Source: Bacteriovoracaceae bacterium (lineage in GTDB: Bacteria > Bdellovibrionota > Bacteriovoracia > Bacteriovoracales > Bacteriovoracaceae). From it: a DNA stretch of 64,000 nt. The stretch lies in NCBI GenBank assembly GCA_048270185.1, contig JBLWTJ010000001.1:256001-320000 (forward strand). The letters are read 5' to 3'. Numbering within the stretch: the first letter of the stretch is position 1; each line of letters opens with the position of its first letter. Both the position numbers and the translations under genes were made by a program. Shown here in pieces: positions 19,733-31,115 of the stretch. The notes beneath the pieces are model-generated. The model had not been told where the DNA came from, did not search any database, and saw only the letters and a program-made list of their open reading frames with translations.

Positions 19733-22099
19733 TTATTTGACTTTAAATCCAGCAAGGGCCGCAAAAGCGTTGTTCTTTAAAGGTGCATCGTTTTGCTTTG
19801 GCATTTTTGGTTGACCGCCACGTGGTTTACTCTGGCGAGGGCCTCCTGTTGGACGCTCATAAGTTTTTGCTTCTTCTGCACCATCTGATTTAAGTGAAAG
19901 TGCAATACGCTTGCGGTCCATATCAACATCAAGAACTACTGCTGATACTTCTTGACCAACCTTTAAAACATCTAGCGCATTATCGACAAAGTGATCGGCC
20001 ATCTGACTGACGTGGACTAGACCATTTTCTTTGATACCAATATCAACAAAGGCTCCAAATTGAGTGATATTTTTTACAATACCTGGATAGCGCTCACCAA
20101 TCTTTACATCTTTTATTTCGCGAACATCTTTTCTAAACTCAGTTGTCTTAAATTCTGTACGTGGATCCTGAGATGGAGCAGTTAGTGATTTATAAATATC
20201 GTTAAGTGTGAACTCACCTAATTTTTCAATAAGTTCTTTGTCTGATTTAAGTTGATTTGCAACAGCATTATCTGTTGTTAGCTGCTCAAGAGTGTAACCC
20301 TTTGATTGTGCCCAGTTCTCTAGCATTTCGTAACTTTCTGGGTGGATAAATGTTGCATCTAGTGGATTGGTCCCATTATAGACTCTTAAGAAGCCCGCTG
20401 CTTGTTGGAAGATTTTATCTGTGAAGCGTGAAACCTTCAAAATATCTGCACGTTGCTTAAAGAGTCCGTTCTTATCTCTGTGTTTAACAATATTTCCTGC
20501 TACTGTTGGCCCAATACCTGAAATGAATGAAAGAAGTGGCGCTGAGGCAGTGTTTAAGTCTACACCTACAAAGTTAACACAACTTTCGACCACTCCATCA
20601 AGAGACTTCTTAAGTCTTACTTGATTTACATCGTGCTGGTATTGACCAACACCTATTGACTTAGGATCAATCTTTACTAGTTCTGCAAGTGGGTCTTGGA
20701 AACGACGGCCAATAGAGATTGCTCCTCTTACTGTTGCGTCTTTATCTGGGAATTCTTTCTTCGCAATTGGTGATGCCGAATAGATTGAAGCACCATCTTC
20801 TGAAATCATTGTTGCTTTAACTTTTCCATCTCTTACTGCAGTAATATTGTCTTCAACAAATTGAAGTGTCTCACGTCCGAAAGTACCGTTACCAATAGCA
20901 ATATACTCGACATTGAATTGTTCAATCATGGCATTAAGAATCGTTGCCGACTCGCGAACTTGATTTCTTGGTGGGTGAGGATAGACAACAGTATCAACGA
21001 CAAATTTACCTGTGTTGTCGACAACCACTGTCTTACAACCCGTCACAACACCTGGGTCAAGAGCAAGGACTGTCTTAGGGCCTAGATAAGGCTGAAGTAA
21101 TAAGTTTTTAAGGTTAACTCCAAAGACATCAATAGCTGATTCATCTGAAAGCTTCTTTAATTCTCCTTTGATCTCAAGATCAAGAGAAGAGTGAATATAA
21201 TTCTTATAAGCCTTTGAGGCACAGTCAACAAGGGCCTTGTAGCTTGTCACAGAAGTGTCTGAGAAGTGCTTAGAAAGAATCATATTATTTGCATAATCTT
21301 CATCAAAGACAATTTCAACTTTTAAGATTTTTTCTGTCTGAGCACGTCGGATTGCTAAGAATCTGTGAGCTGCTTTTGGGTCTCTGAGATCAGATACTTT
21401 TTGTTCATATTCAAAGTAGTCTTTGTATTTTTGCCAGTCTTTGATTTCTTCGTATCCTTTTCGCGGTGAAGATTTAATTTGAGCTTGTGCCCAGTAATCT
21501 TTACGAAGATTTTCTTTCAGTTCTGTATCATGAGCGATCTCTTCAATAATAATATCGCAGGCACCTTTTAAGACATCTTCAAACGTTGCTATCTTCTTGT
21601 CTTTGTTTATGAATTTAAGGGCCTCTTTTGCAAGCTCTGGCATTGGAAGCTTTGATTCCTTCATAAGGATTGCAAATGGTTCAAGCCCTGCTTCTTTTGC
21701 AATTTGGGCCTTCGTCTTTCTCTTTGACTTAAATGGCGCATAGATATCTTCTAGTTGGTTGATATTAGTTGCGGCCTTGATTTTCTTTTCAATTTCAGGA
21801 GTCATCATCTCTTGTTTCGTGATGGCCTCTAAAATAAAAGCACGACGTTTTTCACGCTCAATATATTCATCATATTTTTCTTGAATTAAACGAATTTGCT
21901 CTTCGTCCAATCCACCAGTTTTATCTTTACGGTAACGAGTGATGAAAGGAACAGTACAGTCTTCAACGAGAAGCATGGCAAGTACTGCCATAATTTGTTT
22001 TGCTGTGATGTCTGTGTTGTCTACACAGAATAGGACTGCGTTTTGATCAATGATATCCATTGGGTTCTTTGTGGCTTTTTCAGTCGTCTCTGATGACAT
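19733..22099 (-). CDS. tex: Tex-family RNA-binding transcription accessory protein (S1 domain)
   Basis: TVPFITRYRKDKTGGLDE, LDPG..GCK, AIGNGT, GASIYSAS, GVGQYQHD, C-terminal S1 (FGAFVDIG..GLVHVSQ). Confidence 0.95.
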   Translation of the reverse strand: MSSETTEKATKNPMDIIDQNAVLFCVDNTDITAKQIMAVLAMLLVEDCTVPFITRYRKDKTGGLDEEQIRLIQEKYDEYIEREKRRAFILEAITKQEMMTPEIEKKIKAATNINQLEDIYAPFKSKRKTKAQIAKEAGLEPFAILMKESKLPMPELAKEALKFINKDKKIATFEDVLKGACDIIIEEIAHDTELKENLRKDYWAQAQIKSSPRKGYEEIKDWQKYKDYFEYEQKVSDLRDPKAAHRFLAIRRAQTEKILKVEIVFDEDYANNMILSKHFSDTSVTSYKALVDCASKAYKNYIHSSLDLEIKGELKKLSDESAIDVFGVNLKNLLLQPYLGPKTVLALDPGVVTGCKTVVVDNTGKFVVDTVVYPHPPRNQVRESATILNAMIEQFNVEYIAIGNGTFGRETLQFVEDNITAVRDGKVKATMISEDGASIYSASPIAKKEFPDKDATVRGAISIGRRFQDPLAELVKIDPKSIGVGQYQHDVNQVRLKKSLDGVVESCVNFVGVDLNTASAPLLSFISGIGPTVAGNIVKHRDKNGLFKQRADILKVSRFTDKIFQQAAGFLRVYNGTNPLDATFIHPESYEMLENWAQSKGYTLEQLTTDNAVANQLKSDKELIEKLGEFTLNDIYKSLTAPSQDPRTEFKTTEFRKDVREIKDVKIGERYPGIVKNITQFGAFVDIGIKENGLVHVSQMADHFVDNALDVLKVGQEVSAVVLDVDMDRKRIALSLKSDGAEEAKTYERPTGGPRQSKPRGGQPKMPKQNDAPLKNNAFAALAGFKVK

Positions 22100-22219
22100 T
22101 ATAATTACTCCATTAACTAAATTTGAATTAAAATTGTAATGCGATTAAAATTGGTCTGACAATTAAAAGTTGAGTAAATCCGGCTGGTTAACTTAAAAAT
22201 ATTGATGTAAGAAGTTATT

Positions 22220-23188
22220 ATGAAAAGAAATTACGACTATATGATCGTTGGAGATGGAATAGCTGCTCGCAGCATTTGTTATTTTCTAACAAAGAAATAC
22301 CCAAAGGCCGCAATAGGTCAGATTGCAGATGATATTTCATATCCATCTTGCTCTCTTAAGACAACAAGTGTTGTTTCTCTGGGCCTCTTCGAGGAAGGCA
22401 TCTCAAAGCTTGGAGATATTCTCTTTAACGCTCATATCTTCTTTAATGACTTTGTTAAAAAAAATAATCCAAACGGTATCTATCCAGCTAAGCAGTACTA
22501 TCTGCCTCCTAATATCAAAGAAGATCCGCTAAAATTTAAGCAATTTGAGGCCAGGTATGGCAGTCATTTTGTTGATTTTAAAGGCAATCAATGTGTGGCC
22601 AAAGATGCTTTTCTTATCAACCCTTCTGATTTCATGGATTGGCTTAAATCCCATTACAGTAATGAGATTGAGTTTATGAATGGGAGAGTTTCAAATGTAT
22701 CTTGTGGGCTTTTACAAACAAGCTTAGGAGAGTTAAGAGCTAATAAGATCATCTTAGCAACCTCGGCCTACACTAGTTTATTTTTTAAAGATAAATCACT
22801 TCCAGAAGGCAAACCAGTTAAAGGTACATATTATTTTTGGGATAATATTGATTTTGATGAAGATTTCGTTCTAAGTCATGGCCACTATAATCTCATTTAC
22901 CGAAGAAATGATAAAAGACTTCTCTTTGGTGCTAACTCAATTGAGGGACTTAATCACTTGCATACAACAAATGAAGTGGAAGAGGAGTTTGAATTCTTTA
23001 AAACTTTAATTCCACAGCTTAAAAGTTTTGGTGTACCAAGTGTTGAGACTGGTATACGCCACAAAGGTAAGAGACGAACGCCATTTATGGGTGAGGTAAG
23101 TGAAGGCATTTATGCTCTAAACGCACTTTATAAGAACGGATGGAGCGCTGGGATTAGCTTAGCAAAAGATCTAGTGGAGTTGTTGTAA
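22220..23188 (+). CDS. FAD-dependent oxidoreductase (DAO / glycine oxidase-like)
   Basis: IVGDGIAA dinucleotide motif, PVKG, GIR, LYKNG. Confidence 0.75.
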   Translation: MKRNYDYMIVGDGIAARSICYFLTKKYPKAAIGQIADDISYPSCSLKTTSVVSLGLFEEGISKLGDILFNAHIFFNDFVKKNNPNGIYPAKQYYLPPNIKEDPLKFKQFEARYGSHFVDFKGNQCVAKDAFLINPSDFMDWLKSHYSNEIEFMNGRVSNVSCGLLQTSLGELRANKIILATSAYTSLFFKDKSLPEGKPVKGTYYFWDNIDFDEDFVLSHGHYNLIYRRNDKRLLFGANSIEGLNHLHTTNEVEEEFEFFKTLIPQLKSFGVPSVETGIRHKGKRRTPFMGEVSEGIYALNALYKNGWSAGISLAKDLVELL

Positions 23189-23975: not shown

Positions 23976-25598
23976 TTATTTATGGAATAAATGGTGGAAA
24001 TCAGGTTTATATAGCTTTCTGCGCCGCCCGTTTCGATTTCTTCGGCCACCGCTATTAAGCTTTTGGTTATAGCGTCTATCTTCAATATATTTTGTATATA
24101 TTTTCGCATCACTCTCGCGATAATCTTCTAGGAGAGTGAACATTTCATTGAATGATAGAATTTTTTCATTTTCCTTCTCAGCTGCTGCTATTTTATCATA
24201 GAGCTTTTCTCCAACTTGATCGAGTACCACAAAGAGATCGATTTGTTTTGAGCCAAGATTCAATGGAAACTTATGTTCGAGATCGATTCCTGAAATGACT
24301 TCGACTATCGATCGCGTGACACTTGTTCTTCTGGCAAGCCAAGCAAAGTCATTTCCTAATTTTGTTCCAAGGCTTGGGTCAAACTCATATTTTTCTTTTT
24401 CCATCCATTCAAAAATCTTTGAAAGAATAGCGTCTTTATATCGAGTGTCTTTCAGTTTTGTTGGATTTCTCCATTCGGCCACTAGATCAAAGCGTGAATC
24501 GAACTGAATTTCTCCTGGTCCAAATGTTTTAAAAGTTGAGATATTCTTCTTAGTAACTTTTAGGCCAAAGTCTTGTAAGAATGAAAGTAGGGCAGGATTA
24601 AAGCTCGTCTTATATTCTGGAATATTCATCTGTCTGCCATTAATCTTTTTAGATGCTTCGTTGTAGCCATGATAGATTACTTCTGAACAAAAGATTTCAC
24701 TGTCATCTTGATAGTCCATTGCAAAGTCATATGGAATATTCTTCTTTTTCTTTGTCGTATGATTTTTAAATCTCTCATACATTTCTTTACCTGCAGCATG
24801 TGCTAGTTTTTCGTCTTTTAAACGAAAGACAACTGTACGGGCATTTTTTTGGTCAAGGTGAACTTGAAAAGGAGCTGCCACATTTCCAATTTCAATATGG
24901 GCCTCTGATGTAAAAAGCTCTCCCGTTTTCTCATTTTTGTAAACAAGTGTAAGGTGTGAAAATTGATGATCATCATCGCCAATTCTTGCGATGGCCGCAC
25001 TTGAGTAAGCATTGCCTCTTGAGAGAATGATGTCGCCTGACTTTAAGTCCTTTACACCATTAAAGTCATATTTTGGATTAACCATAAAGTGGATAGGGGT
25101 TGGCCCGTCAAAGTTTAGGGTCGTAAAATCTTTAGGTCTTGAATCTAAGCTTTGTGATTCATAGTAAGATTCAATAAAGTAATCCTCAAGGTAGCGAAGA
25201 GATCTAAAAATATCCTTAACGCCTTTTAAGCATTGTGCTTCAACGACAGATAATTCTTTCTCTGAACTATTTAAGCCTTTTAGCTGTTCTTTTAGATCAA
25301 GTCTTATATTGAAAGAAGCATTAACAAAATCTTGCATTTGATATTTAGAAAATTCAGCAAAATCAATATCATCTGATTTTATGGCAAAGAGTTCACGGTA
25401 GTATTTTTGAGTCTTTGAAACACATTCTTGGGGGGATTTTACTCCTTTAGAAACTTGCTCGTGCATTTCATGCATGAGGGCCTCAAAACCCGATTCCCTA
25501 AGAGAGCTTGGCATACGATATCGTTGTTCACTTTGACAGCTGGCCAATTGAGTTAATAATAGGAGTCCAGAAGTCCACGTAAGTACTTGTTTTTTCAT
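23976..25598 (-). CDS. Lipoprotein with YiiX/YebB-like permuted papain (NlpC/P60) amidase domain
   Basis: Lipobox LASC; GDIILSR, FSH (His), PYDF, IFCSEV (Cys). Confidence 0.8.
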   Translation of the reverse strand: MKKQVLTWTSGLLLLTQLASCQSEQRYRMPSSLRESGFEALMHEMHEQVSKGVKSPQECVSKTQKYYRELFAIKSDDIDFAEFSKYQMQDFVNASFNIRLDLKEQLKGLNSSEKELSVVEAQCLKGVKDIFRSLRYLEDYFIESYYESQSLDSRPKDFTTLNFDGPTPIHFMVNPKYDFNGVKDLKSGDIILSRGNAYSSAAIARIGDDDHQFSHLTLVYKNEKTGELFTSEAHIEIGNVAAPFQVHLDQKNARTVVFRLKDEKLAHAAGKEMYERFKNHTTKKKKNIPYDFAMDYQDDSEIFCSEVIYHGYNEASKKINGRQMNIPEYKTSFNPALLSFLQDFGLKVTKKNISTFKTFGPGEIQFDSRFDLVAEWRNPTKLKDTRYKDAILSKIFEWMEKEKYEFDPSLGTKLGNDFAWLARRTSVTRSIVEVISGIDLEHKFPLNLGSKQIDLFVVLDQVGEKLYDKIAAAEKENEKILSFNEMFTLLEDYRESDAKIYTKYIEDRRYNQKLNSGGRRNRNGRRRKLYKPDFHHLFHK

Positions 25599-25706: not shown

Positions 25707-26234
25707 ATGACAAATAAGAGTGAAGAAGTACATTTTAGAATTTTAAATGCAGTGACTAAACTTGAAGTGGCCAAGGGGCATCTTAATTGGAAGATTGCTG
25801 AGGTTGCAAAAGAAGCCGACGTTACAAGATCGCTAATTTATTATTACTTAGGTAAAGAAAAAGACGTGATTTTAAAAGAGGCCGTAAAGTTTATGATTGC
25901 ACGAGTCTTTAACCTTTCGCAAGAGAGATCAGTTGGAATCAGAGAGCGAATAAAAATAGTTCGTAATCAAATTATCCAAATGCCTTATCTCTTGGCCCTC
26001 TATATGATTAATAAGGGTGCTGGAAATGAGATTTCAGATATTATTGTTGAAGCGGAGCAAGAGCTCTTTACACTTCTTGCAAAGAAATATCCTACTCTTG
26101 ATCCAAGAGAGCACCTAAGAATCTATTTGATGCAATTAGGGGTTTGTTTATACCGTGATATCGATGATGAAAGTCTCGACTATCTTTTTACTAAATATGA
26201 TGAAGACAATGTAATGCATAAAAAAAGCCTCTAA
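25707..26234 (+). CDS. TetR/AcrR-family transcriptional regulator
   Basis: HTH IAEVAKEADVTRSLIYYYLGKEK. Confidence 0.85.
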   Translation: MTNKSEEVHFRILNAVTKLEVAKGHLNWKIAEVAKEADVTRSLIYYYLGKEKDVILKEAVKFMIARVFNLSQERSVGIRERIKIVRNQIIQMPYLLALYMINKGAGNEISDIIVEAEQELFTLLAKKYPTLDPREHLRIYLMQLGVCLYRDIDDESLDYLFTKYDEDNVMHKKSL

Positions 26235-26250
26235 TTAAAGAGGCTTTTTT
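26220..26250. terminator. Bidirectional intrinsic terminator
   Basis: AAAAAAAGCCTCT-aatta-AAGAGGCTTTTTT between convergent genes. Confidence 0.85.
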
Positions 26251-26254
26251 ATTA

Positions 26255-29113
26255 TTAACAAAAGTCTACTGATGCGTGATTATACTCATCTGGTGGTAGT
26301 TCACAATCATCTTCAGAGAAGTTATGATCTCCACCGTTATTAATTGGATCAAATTTTTCAATCGTTCCAGGAATCGCCTGGTCATCAATTAAATCGTGGT
26401 TACTATCAAATGCTTCTTTATATGTTTTGTATGCTTCTAGCATATATACATCTGGTGATTGAGTTTTTCTCTCTTTCAGATTAAACATTGAACTTGAAGC
26501 CTTTGCTAGGAAGTCAGTGAACTTATAAAGTGTCTTTCTTCCTCTAAACATCATCGTATACTGGTTTTCAGTCATTCCAAGACGATCTCTTAGGATTGAG
26601 TTGAATTGGAATCCTTCTCCAGTGAAGTACCAAGTTTCTTCAAGTCTTTCTTTACCTTCTTTTGGCTTACAGATCTTGAAACGAACTGGATTATTTTCTG
26701 CAACATAAACAGTTACTGTCTGTGGCCCACCGTATGGGTTATATGTTGGTCTCTTTTCTTTTCTCCACTTTGAAGTTCCTTCAATCATGAAACATTGTTG
26801 AGTGATTGCTTCAAAGTTTAGAGTAATGGCCTCGGCATATAAGTCAATTGATTGACCTGAATCACTTCTGTTGTTTTCTCCATTTGAACGGTCTAGTGAC
26901 CATGTCGTAGACCAGTCGTAAGAAGCCGATACGCCAACTCCGCCACCAACTGGTGAAGCTTCACCAAATGGGATTTTAAAGTCTAGCTTTGCTCCAACTC
27001 CTGTTTTGTAACCATGAGAGAATCCAACTCTTCTATTCTCTGTAAAGTAAGTCCCAGTACCTGTCGACTTATTGATTCTAATTGTATTCGAATGGGCAAC
27101 TTTTGGAGCACTCGTAATATCGATGATATGACTTACTGGAGTGATCATCATGAAATCCCATGGGCGCTCAGTACACTTTTCCATATTGTAATCAGTGTAA
27201 GTTGTTCCAATTTTATACCATGGTGCTTTTTCTTCACTAAAGAAAGCAGCACATAGTTTTGCAAGTGTCGCTGCACCGTAATTATCTTCATATATTCCAG
27301 CAAATTCTTTTGCAGTTAGTTTGTTCTCATCACTTAATCTAAAGTTAAGTGCTTTGTCATCGTAGTTAATTGTTTCATCAAATGACTCGTGCTTGCTAAG
27401 TTCTTGCTCAAAAAGTTGCTTTGAATTCTTCTTGTAGCGTGGAGCAAGTTTTGCATCGATGATATCTTTCTTAGAAACTCCTTTAATATCTGCTGACATT
27501 TTCTCAAGGTAGTTTTCTAGCTGAACCATCTCAGTCATTTTTTCGTTAATCTTTGAATTCGTGTAATCAGTTTCATCAAAGTGATCTGTTACCTTCAGTT
27601 GTGTGTGAAGAACAGAACGGAATGATTTAGATGAAGCATGGAATGTACCAGCTGCCCATGCAGGTAGTGGTGCAGTTCTTGGATCATCTCCTTCTCTAAT
27701 GATTGGTGAAAGCTTAATGGCCGCATAAGTTCTTGTGTGAACATATGGAATGTCAACAAACTTAATAGGCATATCAATTCTTGCTTTAAGTAGGTTATTT
27801 TCAACTTCAACTTCACGAGAAGCGACTGAGATTAGCTTAAACTTGTGCTTATTCTCATTTGTTAAATCAATATCACCTTCAAGTGGAGCTAGGAAGTAAA
27901 CTTCAAGTTTTAGTTTACCTTGATAGAAAGGCTCTACTGGGTTTGTAGTATGTACATAGTTACCATAGTTAACTTTTGGATACATTTTGATAATGAATGA
28001 TTTCTCAATAACTAGATCAAGATTCTTGTTGATGTGAAAACCTTTTCTATTATCGTGACCTAGGAAGTTATAATCAACTTCGTCAACAAATAGACGAGCT
28101 CTTTGCTTGTTGTTATCTTCTTCACATTGACCTGTTCTTGAAACTTCAGCGAAGATCCAACCGTTATTTGACCATGGGTAGAGACAAAGTCCTCTTGTTA
28201 CCTTTGCATTCTTTAGTGTTTCATTTTGTACTTCAATTTCAAGGTTAAATGGAATACGACGAGTATTCGTATATCTTTCGTGTTCAAGATAGAATTTAAT
28301 TTCTGCACAACCTGATTCATCAAGTTGACCGTCTGTTGAGTCATACATTTCAGTTACGGCGTGCTCTTCTCCATTTCTTTGTTTTTCAAGGTTAATAAGT
28401 CTTGCTTTAACGAATTCATTTGATAGTGAACGTCCATCTGCCTTAAGGTTTAGACAACCATTAACAACAACTTTCTGGTCAATTACTAAATTATCATTTC
28501 TTGGATCAACAAGACCGAAACCTTTTGGTGTGATTTTTACATTTTTAACGTTAATCATTTCTTCACTTGAAAGCTTCTGAGCATTCAGTGAATTCTTTAG
28601 GTGGTAGTTATTTCCGTGGATAATGCTGTTTGCATATTGGTTAACAGCAAGCTTTAGGTCGTAGCTAATGCTTGGATTTGTTGCTAGTGACACTTTTCTT
28701 TCAAATGGTAGATATGTATTTGGAAGTGAGTAATCCATTGGCATTTGCTCATCCCAGAATATACAGCTATTTGCGTCAGCTCTTTTTTCTACAGTTTCAA
28801 AATTTGCACCTGTAACAAAGAAGCTATTATATTGTAGGCTTTTTCCAATTTTAGAATTTAGACATGCTTTAACATGGAAAGTCTTCTGATAAGCAATACG
28901 TGATTTCATTGTTGGCTTATCTTCACTAACACCTTCAACACTGAAACGTGAAACGCTGATAAGACCGTTTTCATTAGCAGAAGCCTTAAGCTGTCTTGCT
29001 AACATTTGCTTCTCATCATTAGATGTATCACTTCCACAACCAACAAGTGCTGTTAGTGTCAGTAGAATGATACTTAGACGTGATAGGTTTTTAGTGTTCT
29101 TACAAAATGTCAT
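26255..29113 (-). CDS. Large lipoprotein with a candidate beta-pore-forming (aerolysin/ETX-like) hairpin
   Basis: Lipobox LVGC; beta-rich; segment GVGAKLDFKIPFGEASPVGGGVGVSASYDWSTTWS. Start overlaps the upstream gene by 14 nt. Confidence 0.75.
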   Translation of the reverse strand: MTFCKNTKNLSRLSIILLTLTALVGCGSDTSNDEKQMLARQLKASANENGLISVSRFSVEGVSEDKPTMKSRIAYQKTFHVKACLNSKIGKSLQYNSFFVTGANFETVEKRADANSCIFWDEQMPMDYSLPNTYLPFERKVSLATNPSISYDLKLAVNQYANSIIHGNNYHLKNSLNAQKLSSEEMINVKNVKITPKGFGLVDPRNDNLVIDQKVVVNGCLNLKADGRSLSNEFVKARLINLEKQRNGEEHAVTEMYDSTDGQLDESGCAEIKFYLEHERYTNTRRIPFNLEIEVQNETLKNAKVTRGLCLYPWSNNGWIFAEVSRTGQCEEDNNKQRARLFVDEVDYNFLGHDNRKGFHINKNLDLVIEKSFIIKMYPKVNYGNYVHTTNPVEPFYQGKLKLEVYFLAPLEGDIDLTNENKHKFKLISVASREVEVENNLLKARIDMPIKFVDIPYVHTRTYAAIKLSPIIREGDDPRTAPLPAWAAGTFHASSKSFRSVLHTQLKVTDHFDETDYTNSKINEKMTEMVQLENYLEKMSADIKGVSKKDIIDAKLAPRYKKNSKQLFEQELSKHESFDETINYDDKALNFRLSDENKLTAKEFAGIYEDNYGAATLAKLCAAFFSEEKAPWYKIGTTYTDYNMEKCTERPWDFMMITPVSHIIDITSAPKVAHSNTIRINKSTGTGTYFTENRRVGFSHGYKTGVGAKLDFKIPFGEASPVGGGVGVSASYDWSTTWSLDRSNGENNRSDSGQSIDLYAEAITLNFEAITQQCFMIEGTSKWRKEKRPTYNPYGGPQTVTVYVAENNPVRFKICKPKEGKERLEETWYFTGEGFQFNSILRDRLGMTENQYTMMFRGRKTLYKFTDFLAKASSSMFNLKERKTQSPDVYMLEAYKTYKEAFDSNHDLIDDQAIPGTIEKFDPINNGGDHNFSEDDCELPPDEYNHASVDFC

Positions 29114-30284
29114 ATTCTTTCCTTAATGAGATGCTGTAAACTTGCTCATCGCTGTAACCATTGATTAGGTAAACTGAGTCTTCGTTTCCTATAACTGTGC
29201 GATTTGTATATTTAATATCTGCTGAAAATCCACCAAGGCCTGTCATCGCTAGACTTGCTTGGTAACCTTCGTAGTCATTTGATAAAGCATTAGCGCGATA
29301 GAATGCTGGTGCTGTATCCGCTTCGTTTCTAAAAGCAAGTGCTTCAAGAGAGATCTTTGATCCAGCAATTTTTGTTTCATAATTTGCACCATAAAGGTAT
29401 CCAGTATTCTTTCCTGTTGGTGCATCTTGGTTATTTACATATGAACCAAATACTTTCATCTTATCTTCACCGACTCTAAAGAGCACTCCAGCATTGGCGT
29501 ACATTCCTGTGTAGTCATAGTAGTAAAGACTTTGATCTGCTGCTGCACCTTTACTTACTGAGTTCCCCCAGTAGTAGTCGTTATCTGCTACATCGGCCGA
29601 AAGCTTAAAGTAACGATAGCTTCCAACTGCTGAGTATAATTTCATTCCACTTGTTAGGTATGTTAGATCGATACTTTCATTAAAGAAGCTTGGGCTTCCT
29701 GAATCATCGACATTAAAAGTTTCTTTTAAAATTCTGTTTTCTGGCCTTGCTTGTGTTGCTTGTAATCTTACATAAAGATTTCCAAATTTTTGGATAGCAA
29801 CTTCTCTAGCTCCAATAAATGAGTTTCCACCATTAATAAACGGTGAAATAAATTGTTGTGAGCTTGAATTATTTAAGGCACCAAAATTGATTTTTGCGAA
29901 ATTTAAAATCTTGTAGTTAAAGTAACCGTAATTATAAGTGAATTTTGGCTTAAACTCGGCCGCTCTTCCTTGCTCTTGTGTTGAAGAGTTACCTGACTGA
30001 TATTTGAATCCACCATCAAAGTCAAAGTCGAGTCCACTAGCAATGTTGGCCTCAAGATCGATATTGATATTAGTCTCAAAGCGAGAGAACTTATCAGTAT
30101 CAGAAGACATTGAGCTATACGAAGAGTCGATATTTAGATCGAGGTTCTTAATTCCAGCTTCTTTAAGGCCTTGGCGTACCACAGATGTCTGTGATGTAGA
30201 CGCTTTGCTTTGCCCAAGAACTGGAGTGGCCAGTAGTAAGCTCAGTAAAATTAAATGTTTAGTCGTTACTTTTTCGTTTTGCAT
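29100..30284 (-). CDS. Putative outer-membrane beta-barrel (porin-like) protein
   Basis: ATG 30284 with AGGAAAG RBS (ORF-track start 30353 is unlikely); signal peptide; alternating aromatic strands. Confidence 0.7.
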   Translation of the reverse strand: MQNEKVTTKHLILLSLLLATPVLGQSKASTSQTSVVRQGLKEAGIKNLDLNIDSSYSSMSSDTDKFSRFETNINIDLEANIASGLDFDFDGGFKYQSGNSSTQEQGRAAEFKPKFTYNYGYFNYKILNFAKINFGALNNSSSQQFISPFINGGNSFIGAREVAIQKFGNLYVRLQATQARPENRILKETFNVDDSGSPSFFNESIDLTYLTSGMKLYSAVGSYRYFKLSADVADNDYYWGNSVSKGAAADQSLYYYDYTGMYANAGVLFRVGEDKMKVFGSYVNNQDAPTGKNTGYLYGANYETKIAGSKISLEALAFRNEADTAPAFYRANALSNDYEGYQASLAMTGLGGFSADIKYTNRTVIGNEDSVYLINGYSDEQVYSISLRKEYDIL

Positions 30285-30316
30285 ATCTTTCCTATTTGGT
30301 ACGATGTTATTAGAGA

Positions 30317-30333
30317 TGCAGGAATGATGCCAG
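30317..30333 (-). promoter_or_regulatory. sigma54 -24/-12 promoter
   Basis: Minus strand CTGGCATCATTCCTGCA, GG-N10-GC, about 33 nt upstream of the ATG. Confidence 0.7.
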
Positions 30334-30421
30334 TTGTCATGGACAATGTTCACGGTGTCTAAATTTTAACCTACCGAAATAACGTTCATCATTGAATATT
30401 ATTGATGTTTAGAGAATACTC

Positions 30422-31038: not shown

Positions 31039-31115
31039 TGGTGCGAAAGGGCAGATTTGAACTGCCGACCTACGGGATATGAATCCGTCGCTCTAACCAA
31101 CTGAGCTACATTCGC
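31039..31115 (-). tRNA. tRNA with anticodon CAU, probably elongator tRNA-Met
   Basis: 77 nt with cloverleaf, D arm GCTC/GAGC, loop TT-CAT-AT, T arm GGCAG-TTCAAAT-CTGCC and encoded CCA. G1-C72 is paired, so it is not an initiator tRNA. Confidence 0.93.

Follow-up and report, generated by a model that had tools for sequence, protein, structure and literature searches.

How Bdellovibrio-like predators alter the inner membrane of their prey and yet keep it intact is a standing question, and a pair of genes in the genome of a Bacteriovoracaceae bacterium (assembly GCA_048270185.1) provides a concrete candidate for part of the answer. The pair lies within a stretch of 64,000 nt (contig JBLWTJ010000001.1, positions 256,001 to 320,000; hereafter the window), to which all coordinates refer, and every element of the operon is on the minus strand: a sigma54-type promoter-like site, a gene for an outer-membrane barrel protein, a gene for a 952-aa lipoprotein that overlaps the barrel gene by 14 nt, and a stem-loop. 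The two genes are likely to form one unit. Does this pair encode a pore former, as had been predicted from the sequence, and would such a pore be aimed at prey? We found that the two genes make up a genuine and previously undescribed system of Bdellovibrionota, which is predator-associated and probably a membrane-inserting beta-pore system. If so, bacteria would be the target of a beta-pore former that is anchored to the cell and has a very long stem, and the barrel might represent a new means of lipoprotein export.

The reading as a pore former depends on a hairpin in the C-terminal part of the lipoprotein. The original prediction placed two alternating hydrophobic/polar strands at about 26860-27070; the peptide is indeed there (residues 683-755, 27067-26849), but the hairpin is longer than that prediction had it. 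Mean-field co-variation on a shallow alignment of 240 rows (effective 175) predicts a single antiparallel register across residues ~663-772, centred near residue 717. Within residues 660-775, 16 of the 49 couplings with z > 3 fall in a band that contains 456 of the 5778 pairs, where ~4 would be expected, although this band was picked after data inspection; the best anti-diagonal scored 6.7 against 6.0 for the 99.9th background percentile. The two faces of the hairpin were analyzed in 208 distinct family rows over four segments. G/S/T/N/D account for 67-73% of odd positions from 679 to 757 in each of the four segments, whereas hydrophobic residues make up 67-75% of even positions at the tip and 34-48% in the stem. 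The alternation is clear family-wide, with a tip difference that is positive in 207 of 208 rows and greater than 0.3 in 184, but it is marginal in the single sequence (shuffle p of 0.32, 0.06, 0.25, and 0.02 over the four segments). Strong couplings are concentrated on the small face (9/65 versus 1/65 on the other face), and the Ser/Thr-rich flanks that had been described were also recovered, with an S+T content of 0.21 versus 0.14, higher in 114 of 130 rows. The stem, at ~40 residues per arm, is far longer than one bilayer, and the hydrophobic belt is found at the tip only. We infer that this pattern reflects a lumen-lining face, a lipid belt, and a stem that lies outside the membrane. That the hairpin forms a membrane barrel is, in our judgment, probable, and the protein likely works like a long-stemmed beta-pore former.

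The pair was surveyed in a phylum sample of 401 Bdellovibrionota genomes, in which related genomes are not independent. Used as a single query, the lipoprotein had matches in 75 of these genomes, and its profile gathered 426 clusters at 50% identity (E ≤ 0.001); among named relatives, the closest are hypothetical proteins from Halobacteriovorax (73-80% group) and Bacteriovorax. The hairpin-domain profile matched in 159 genomes and the barrel profile in 160; 149 genomes hold both, 10 the hairpin domain only, and 11 the barrel only. The two thus co-occur in 149 of the 170 genomes holding either gene, which supports co-conservation of the pair. We then read 40 loci (L031-L070), picked from the single-query lipoprotein matches, which contain 41 family proteins and 28 barrels. 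A lipoprotein gene is overlapped by 23 of the 28 barrel genes, and in 21 of the 28 an in-frame lipoprotein start lies exactly 14 nt before the stop end, the arrangement that had been noted in the window and that the open reading frame coordinates reproduce. In those 21, the C-terminal codons of the barrel (L-R-K or L-E, then Y) also provide the ribosome-binding site and start codon of the next gene, so the last strand of the barrel is under a double constraint. The arrangement varies: some genomes carry the barrel and lipoprotein genes at separate places, and one (G016) shows two lipoprotein genes in tandem behind a barrel at each of two loci (L101:4706-12640 and L102:4766-12514) and two 1500-aa lipoprotein forms at a third (L103). 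No hairpin domain was found at E ≤ 1 in five near-complete genomes of the window's own family, in a search run without a positive control, and tblastn of three hairpin domains against plasmids gave no real match. A search for stand-alone hairpin domains returned eight proteins, and the five inspected resemble C-terminal fragments or short versions of this protein family.

The lipoprotein carries an LVGC lipobox, as originally described, and by a loose Cys test the lipid-anchor Cys is kept in all 41 locus proteins. Profile comparisons show that the first two N-terminal domains, d1 and d2, are homologous to each other and contain Cys; d3 is a third beta-rich domain, followed by a linker and the C-terminal domain. 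The three may together form a stalk. Family members range from ~690 aa (d1-d3 and the C-terminal domain) up to ~1750 aa with extra units; the gene at L062:4468-9705 encodes a 1746-aa form, and one 1221-aa protein (P0078) contains repeated d1/d2/d3 units and no hairpin-domain match. In the C-terminal domain, C621-C647 and C774-C815 are conserved and each pair is linked by co-variation, which suggests two disulfides. The lipoprotein has no Pfam or NCBIfam family above cut-off, and a whole-protein Atlas search was uninformative (best 0.84).

TABLE 1 Features of the barrel-lipoprotein locus, in window coordinates
Feature	Coordinates	Strand	Basis or remark
Sigma54-type -24/-12 promoter-like site TGGCATCATTCCTGCA	30317..30332	-	8/11 consensus positions (sequence match)
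Barrel gene, 394 aa, homologue of Bd2381	29100..30284	-	ATG at 30284
Translational-coupling cassette	29100..29126	-	final barrel codons include both AGGA and the start of the lipoprotein gene (14 nt before stop end)
Lipoprotein gene, 952 aa, homologue of Bd2382	26255..29113	-	overlaps barrel gene by 14 nt
Lipobox LVGC (Cys26)	29036..29047	-	Cys26 kept in 90% or more of 130 rows
Three beta-rich N-terminal domains: d1 ~50-170, d2 ~185-335, d3 ~336-505	27599..28966	-	profile cross-matches, repeat-number variation
C-terminal hairpin-bearing domain, residues 610-880	26474..27286	-	conserved Cys, co-variation, profile matches in 159/401 genomes
Predicted long antiparallel hairpin, residues ~663-772	26798..27127	-	co-variation register sums 1432-1438; two-faced residue pattern
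Hydrophobic hairpin tip, residues ~702-738	27010-26900	-	residue pattern
Stem-loop flanked by A and T runs	26221..26250	.	fold energy and gene layout

The structure model of the barrel protein predicts a 16-stranded antiparallel outer-membrane fold of the porin type, without a plug domain. Its best fold matches are the small-solute porins OmpM1, OprB, and OprP, which together with Bdellovibrio PopA are among the closest known systems. No Pfam or NCBIfam family scored above cut-off for the barrel, and a PDB sequence search with its profile returned nothing meaningful. The gene pair had been likened to Slam/type 11 secretion system (T11SS) cargo operons, in which a barrel gene likewise adjoins a lipoprotein gene. 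Slam combines a 14-stranded barrel with a TPR domain at its N-terminus, whereas the barrel here has 16 strands and no N-terminal domain: the first strand starts at residue 45, and because only ~20 residues, with one short helix, separate it from the signal peptide, there is no room for a TPR domain. Pfam TPR was also missing from all 33 barrel rows. We therefore rejected Slam/T11SS membership.

Homologues of both genes are present in the genetically tractable strain B. bacteriovorus HD100. The proteins at locus L081 are identical to CAE80200.1 and CAE80201.1 and match the barrel profile and all four lipoprotein profiles; because the HD100 lipoprotein is a longer form, we call it a homologue. 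The two appear to correspond to Q6MKK7 and Q6MKK6, named Bd2381 and Bd2382 in a supplement, since the flanking neighbours are Q6MKK8 and Q6MKK5. They are uncharacterised rows in two supplements. One predatosome sheet lists Bd2381/Bd2382 as "up in Bd, not in HI," at 1.56/1.36 and 1.60/1.36 on an unchecked scale (PMC2797640). In the supplementary data of a second study, Bd2382 has a log2 fold change of +0.98, +1.07, and +1.13 at 30, 45, and 60 min after prey contact, a modest rise, and is near zero by 4 h, and Bd2381 stands at +0.57 to +0.59 log2, flagged as imputed, and at -0.6 at 5-7 h (PMC12546842). We found no paper that names these genes in its main text or describes such a pore former in these predators, although mentions in supplementary tables may be missed by such a search; a term search of the main text of PMC12034629 and PMC3526173 did not find the gene names. 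The HD100 pair comes after the gliding cluster Bd2368-2377, whose expression pattern differs.

How close is the hairpin domain to known pore formers? In the Atlas, a tool uncalibrated for protein parts, residues 640-880 lie next to the Aerolysin, BB_PF/monalysin, and ETX_MTX2 clusters at 0.91-0.93. Against the PDB, the domain profile aligned on the hairpin with C2-II (E 0.023), Cry23Aa (E 0.23), monalysin (E 0.83), and a crystal protein (E 1.5), so that four of the seven matches at E ≤ 10 are beta-pore formers. The hairpin profile ranked seven ETX/MTX2-type proteins 2, 3, 4, 8, 9, 40, and 259 of 2770, at their Ser/Thr-rich hairpin region. The aerolysin-fold formers (ETX/MTX2 or Mpp, monalysin; PF03318, PF01117, PF18063) share the amphipathic hairpin and its Ser/Thr-rich flanks; here, however, the domain ends a lipoprotein of ~950 aa, contains conserved Cys pairs, and is encoded by a gene coupled to a barrel, and the conserved "VPP" strand turn of the Mpp alignment has no visible counterpart. 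Binary-toxin B components (C2-II, anthrax PA type) have a long stem with a hydrophobic tip, as is predicted here as well, and C2-II is the best PDB match. This match is confined to the hairpin (profile positions 68-149); the other domains (PA14, heptamerisation, and receptor) are unmatched, no Pfam match was obtained, the full-length lipoprotein profile did not match C2-II at E ≤ 10, and no A-component gene adjoins the pair in the loci read. The CDCL toxins of Bacteroidota are reported to be pore formers with SpII lipoprotein signals that kill other bacteria; their fold is of the CDC/MACPF type, the system has two components plus an immunity lipoprotein, and the B. fragilis CDCL operon also carries a porin gene (PMC11169675). 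The lipoprotein signal and the neighbouring porin gene are the points of likeness; in sequence comparison our family has no CDC/MACPF Pfam match, and its co-variation describes one long hairpin.

Several results weigh against a prey-directed pore former. The Atlas neighbours shared 129-151 features, below the 170 typical of true family matches. The PDB E values are weak (0.023-1.5), the remaining matches include two outer-membrane proteins with similar scores and a designed protein, and the top decoy of the hairpin-profile ranking resembles an ordinary barrel strand pair. The reverse profile test gave no enrichment (4/191 above the 99th and 18/191 above the 95th percentile of long proteins), none of the 41 hairpin domains matched an aerolysin-clan Pfam family at E ≤ 0.1 and one matched CEL_III_C at E 0.049, and HHalign against a shallow seven-row ETX/MTX2-type alignment returned a probability of 0.2%, versus 0.1-1.1% for controls. 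PF03318, PF01117, and PF18063 had no match above cut-off; PF03318, also run over the phylum sample, was found neither in the window's own genome nor in any of the 401 genomes. The original proposal of an aerolysin/ETX-type loop survives as a resemblance in the Atlas, the PDB leads, and a one-way profile ranking, but Pfam, HHalign, and the reverse profile were negative, and assignment of the lipoprotein to the aerolysin family is not established. As to distribution, 231 of the 401 genomes hold neither gene, and two complete genomes (G152 and G223; L099:5122-6318 and L100:8118-9251) retain the barrel in a form with an altered C-terminus but are missing the lipoprotein, of which the gap contains no remnant; these would be natural comparators for phenotype. 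A porin fold with 16 strands is not known to export lipoproteins. In HD100, induction of the pair in the supplementary data amounts to about two-fold or less, and both proteins were measured in attack phase too. In a transposon sequencing (Tn-seq) data set, the fitness values of RS08020 (1.05-1.21) and RS08025 (1.52-1.78), assigned to the pair by gene order, are all above the defect cut-off of 0.1 under four conditions (PMC6561027). If this mapping is right, no fitness is lost, and the pair is therefore dispensable for predation on two laboratory prey. Use against prey, suggested at the outset, is thus not established: HD100 expression fits it, but Tn-seq shows no defect. A universal or essential killing factor was rejected, given the patchy distribution, the genomes without the lipoprotein, and the lack of a Tn-seq fitness loss.

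We favour the following explanation. The lipoprotein is likely held on the predator outer membrane by its lipid and by the porin-like barrel, which may serve as its exit route to the cell surface or as its anchor there. Domains d1-d3 would act as a spacer that differs in length between lineages, copies would oligomerise, and residues ~678-757 would build a beta-barrel stem whose lumen is lined by the small polar face and whose hydrophobic tip likely inserts into a prey membrane. The target would be the prey envelope, most plausibly its inner membrane within the first hour that the predator spends inside, and the product an accessory, redundant channel through which leakage, release of nutrients, or delivery of enzymes would occur. 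For a cell-tethered pore aimed at prey, we see the chances as about even. The full picture of a "stylet," in which a surface lipoprotein stalk displayed by its own porin-like barrel makes a long-stemmed pore in the prey membrane, serves as a feeding or enzyme conduit, and uses a new export route, is tentative and rather doubtful in all its parts taken together.

The same hairpin would suit any membrane-spanning barrel, and it might therefore build an oligomeric beta-barrel in the outer membrane of the predator itself, like the lipoproteins CsgG and FlgH, with the pair serving as a secretion or uptake conduit and the porin-like barrel as its assembly partner. The lipid anchor kept in all 41 locus proteins agrees with this, as do the presence of both proteins outside prey and the lack of an immunity-like third gene with the pair in the loci read. 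A conduit of this kind would nevertheless have ~650 residues of number-varying repeat domains between lipid and hairpin, and a stem that exceeds one bilayer by far with its hydrophobic belt at the tip only; the nearest leads are, moreover, secreted pore formers. We regard it as unlikely.

An equally improbable alternative, in our estimate, keeps the hairpin outside membranes altogether: the lipoprotein would be a surface adhesin or structural fibre anchored by the barrel, and the hairpin a fixed part of an elongated soluble beta-fold or of an inter-subunit sheet. All significant family tests were negative, the N-terminal part consists of repeated beta-rich domains, and paralogue expansion (up to two tandem copies per barrel) together with dispensability would suit redundant adhesins. 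We disfavour it because a small polar face that carries couplings over ~80 residues, opposite a face that is strongly hydrophobic at the tip only, would be expected of a lumen and a lipid belt and not of a packed core. Least likely of all is a feeding role inside prey in which the barrel acts as a solute porin and the lipoprotein as its lid or as a partner that captures substrate, loosely analogous to the barrel-lipoprotein pairs SusC/SusD and BtuB/BtuG. Its appeal lies in the porin-type fold matches, the persistence of the barrel without lipoprotein in two genomes, and the rise of both proteins in early growth inside prey that the supplementary data indicate; it leaves the conserved two-faced hairpin unexplained, however, and would have to work with a 16-stranded barrel that has no plug domain.

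The predicted -24/-12 promoter is supported by conservation, as the site is present in all six own-genus loci (L001-L006, window included), and the genome contains one Sigma54_DBD gene. The genome has 935 sites that score at least 8/11 for the sigma54 consensus, so a lone -24/-12 site is weak evidence. A site of this score lies close to the start of 10 of 28 barrel genes and of 12 of 18 lipoprotein genes without an overlapping barrel, against 21 of 232 control open reading frames; several are at implausible positions. Of the 10 at barrel genes, several fall within the coding sequence or a long way upstream of it, and scores are low in the Bdellovibrio loci. For these reasons we restrict sigma54 control of the pair, which we consider likely, to the window's own family of genomes; the site data do not support its extension to the whole phylum. 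A GTG start for the barrel gene at 30353 was rejected, as the promoter-like site would be inside the extension and relatives start at the ATG.

Downstream of the pair, the predicted terminator was confirmed as a 12-bp stem-loop with a fold energy of -15.4 kcal/mol (z -4.2; 0/200 shuffles as good), although a separate scan did not list it. It is likely a two-way terminator shared with a convergent gene for a TetR-like regulator (25707-26234, plus strand), whose own stop codon is inside the stem-loop. The barrel and lipoprotein genes are each single copy in the genome, and the G+C content of the locus (0.36) is similar to that of its surroundings. In RNA run X1, just five short contigs matched the lipoprotein gene, and neither expression nor co-transcription was demonstrated. 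A short intergenic stretch at 31057-31099, possibly a tRNA-like element, matches a contig of the same run that continues into other sequence.

Further downstream, a gene that we take to be Tex-like and a FAD oxidoreductase gene (19733-23188) are also found with the pair in L031, L032, L033, L036, L039, and L041; because these neighbours recur in several relatives, the locus appears to be old in its own family. In Bdellovibrio-like genomes (L081 and upstream; L063, L064, L067, L070, and L103), the pair adjoins heptosyltransferase and other lipopolysaccharide genes. Two genes downstream of the pair in the window, 23976-25598 (minus strand) encodes a 540-aa protein whose N-terminus is lipobox-like and which contains a Peptidase_C92 domain (E 4.3e-8).

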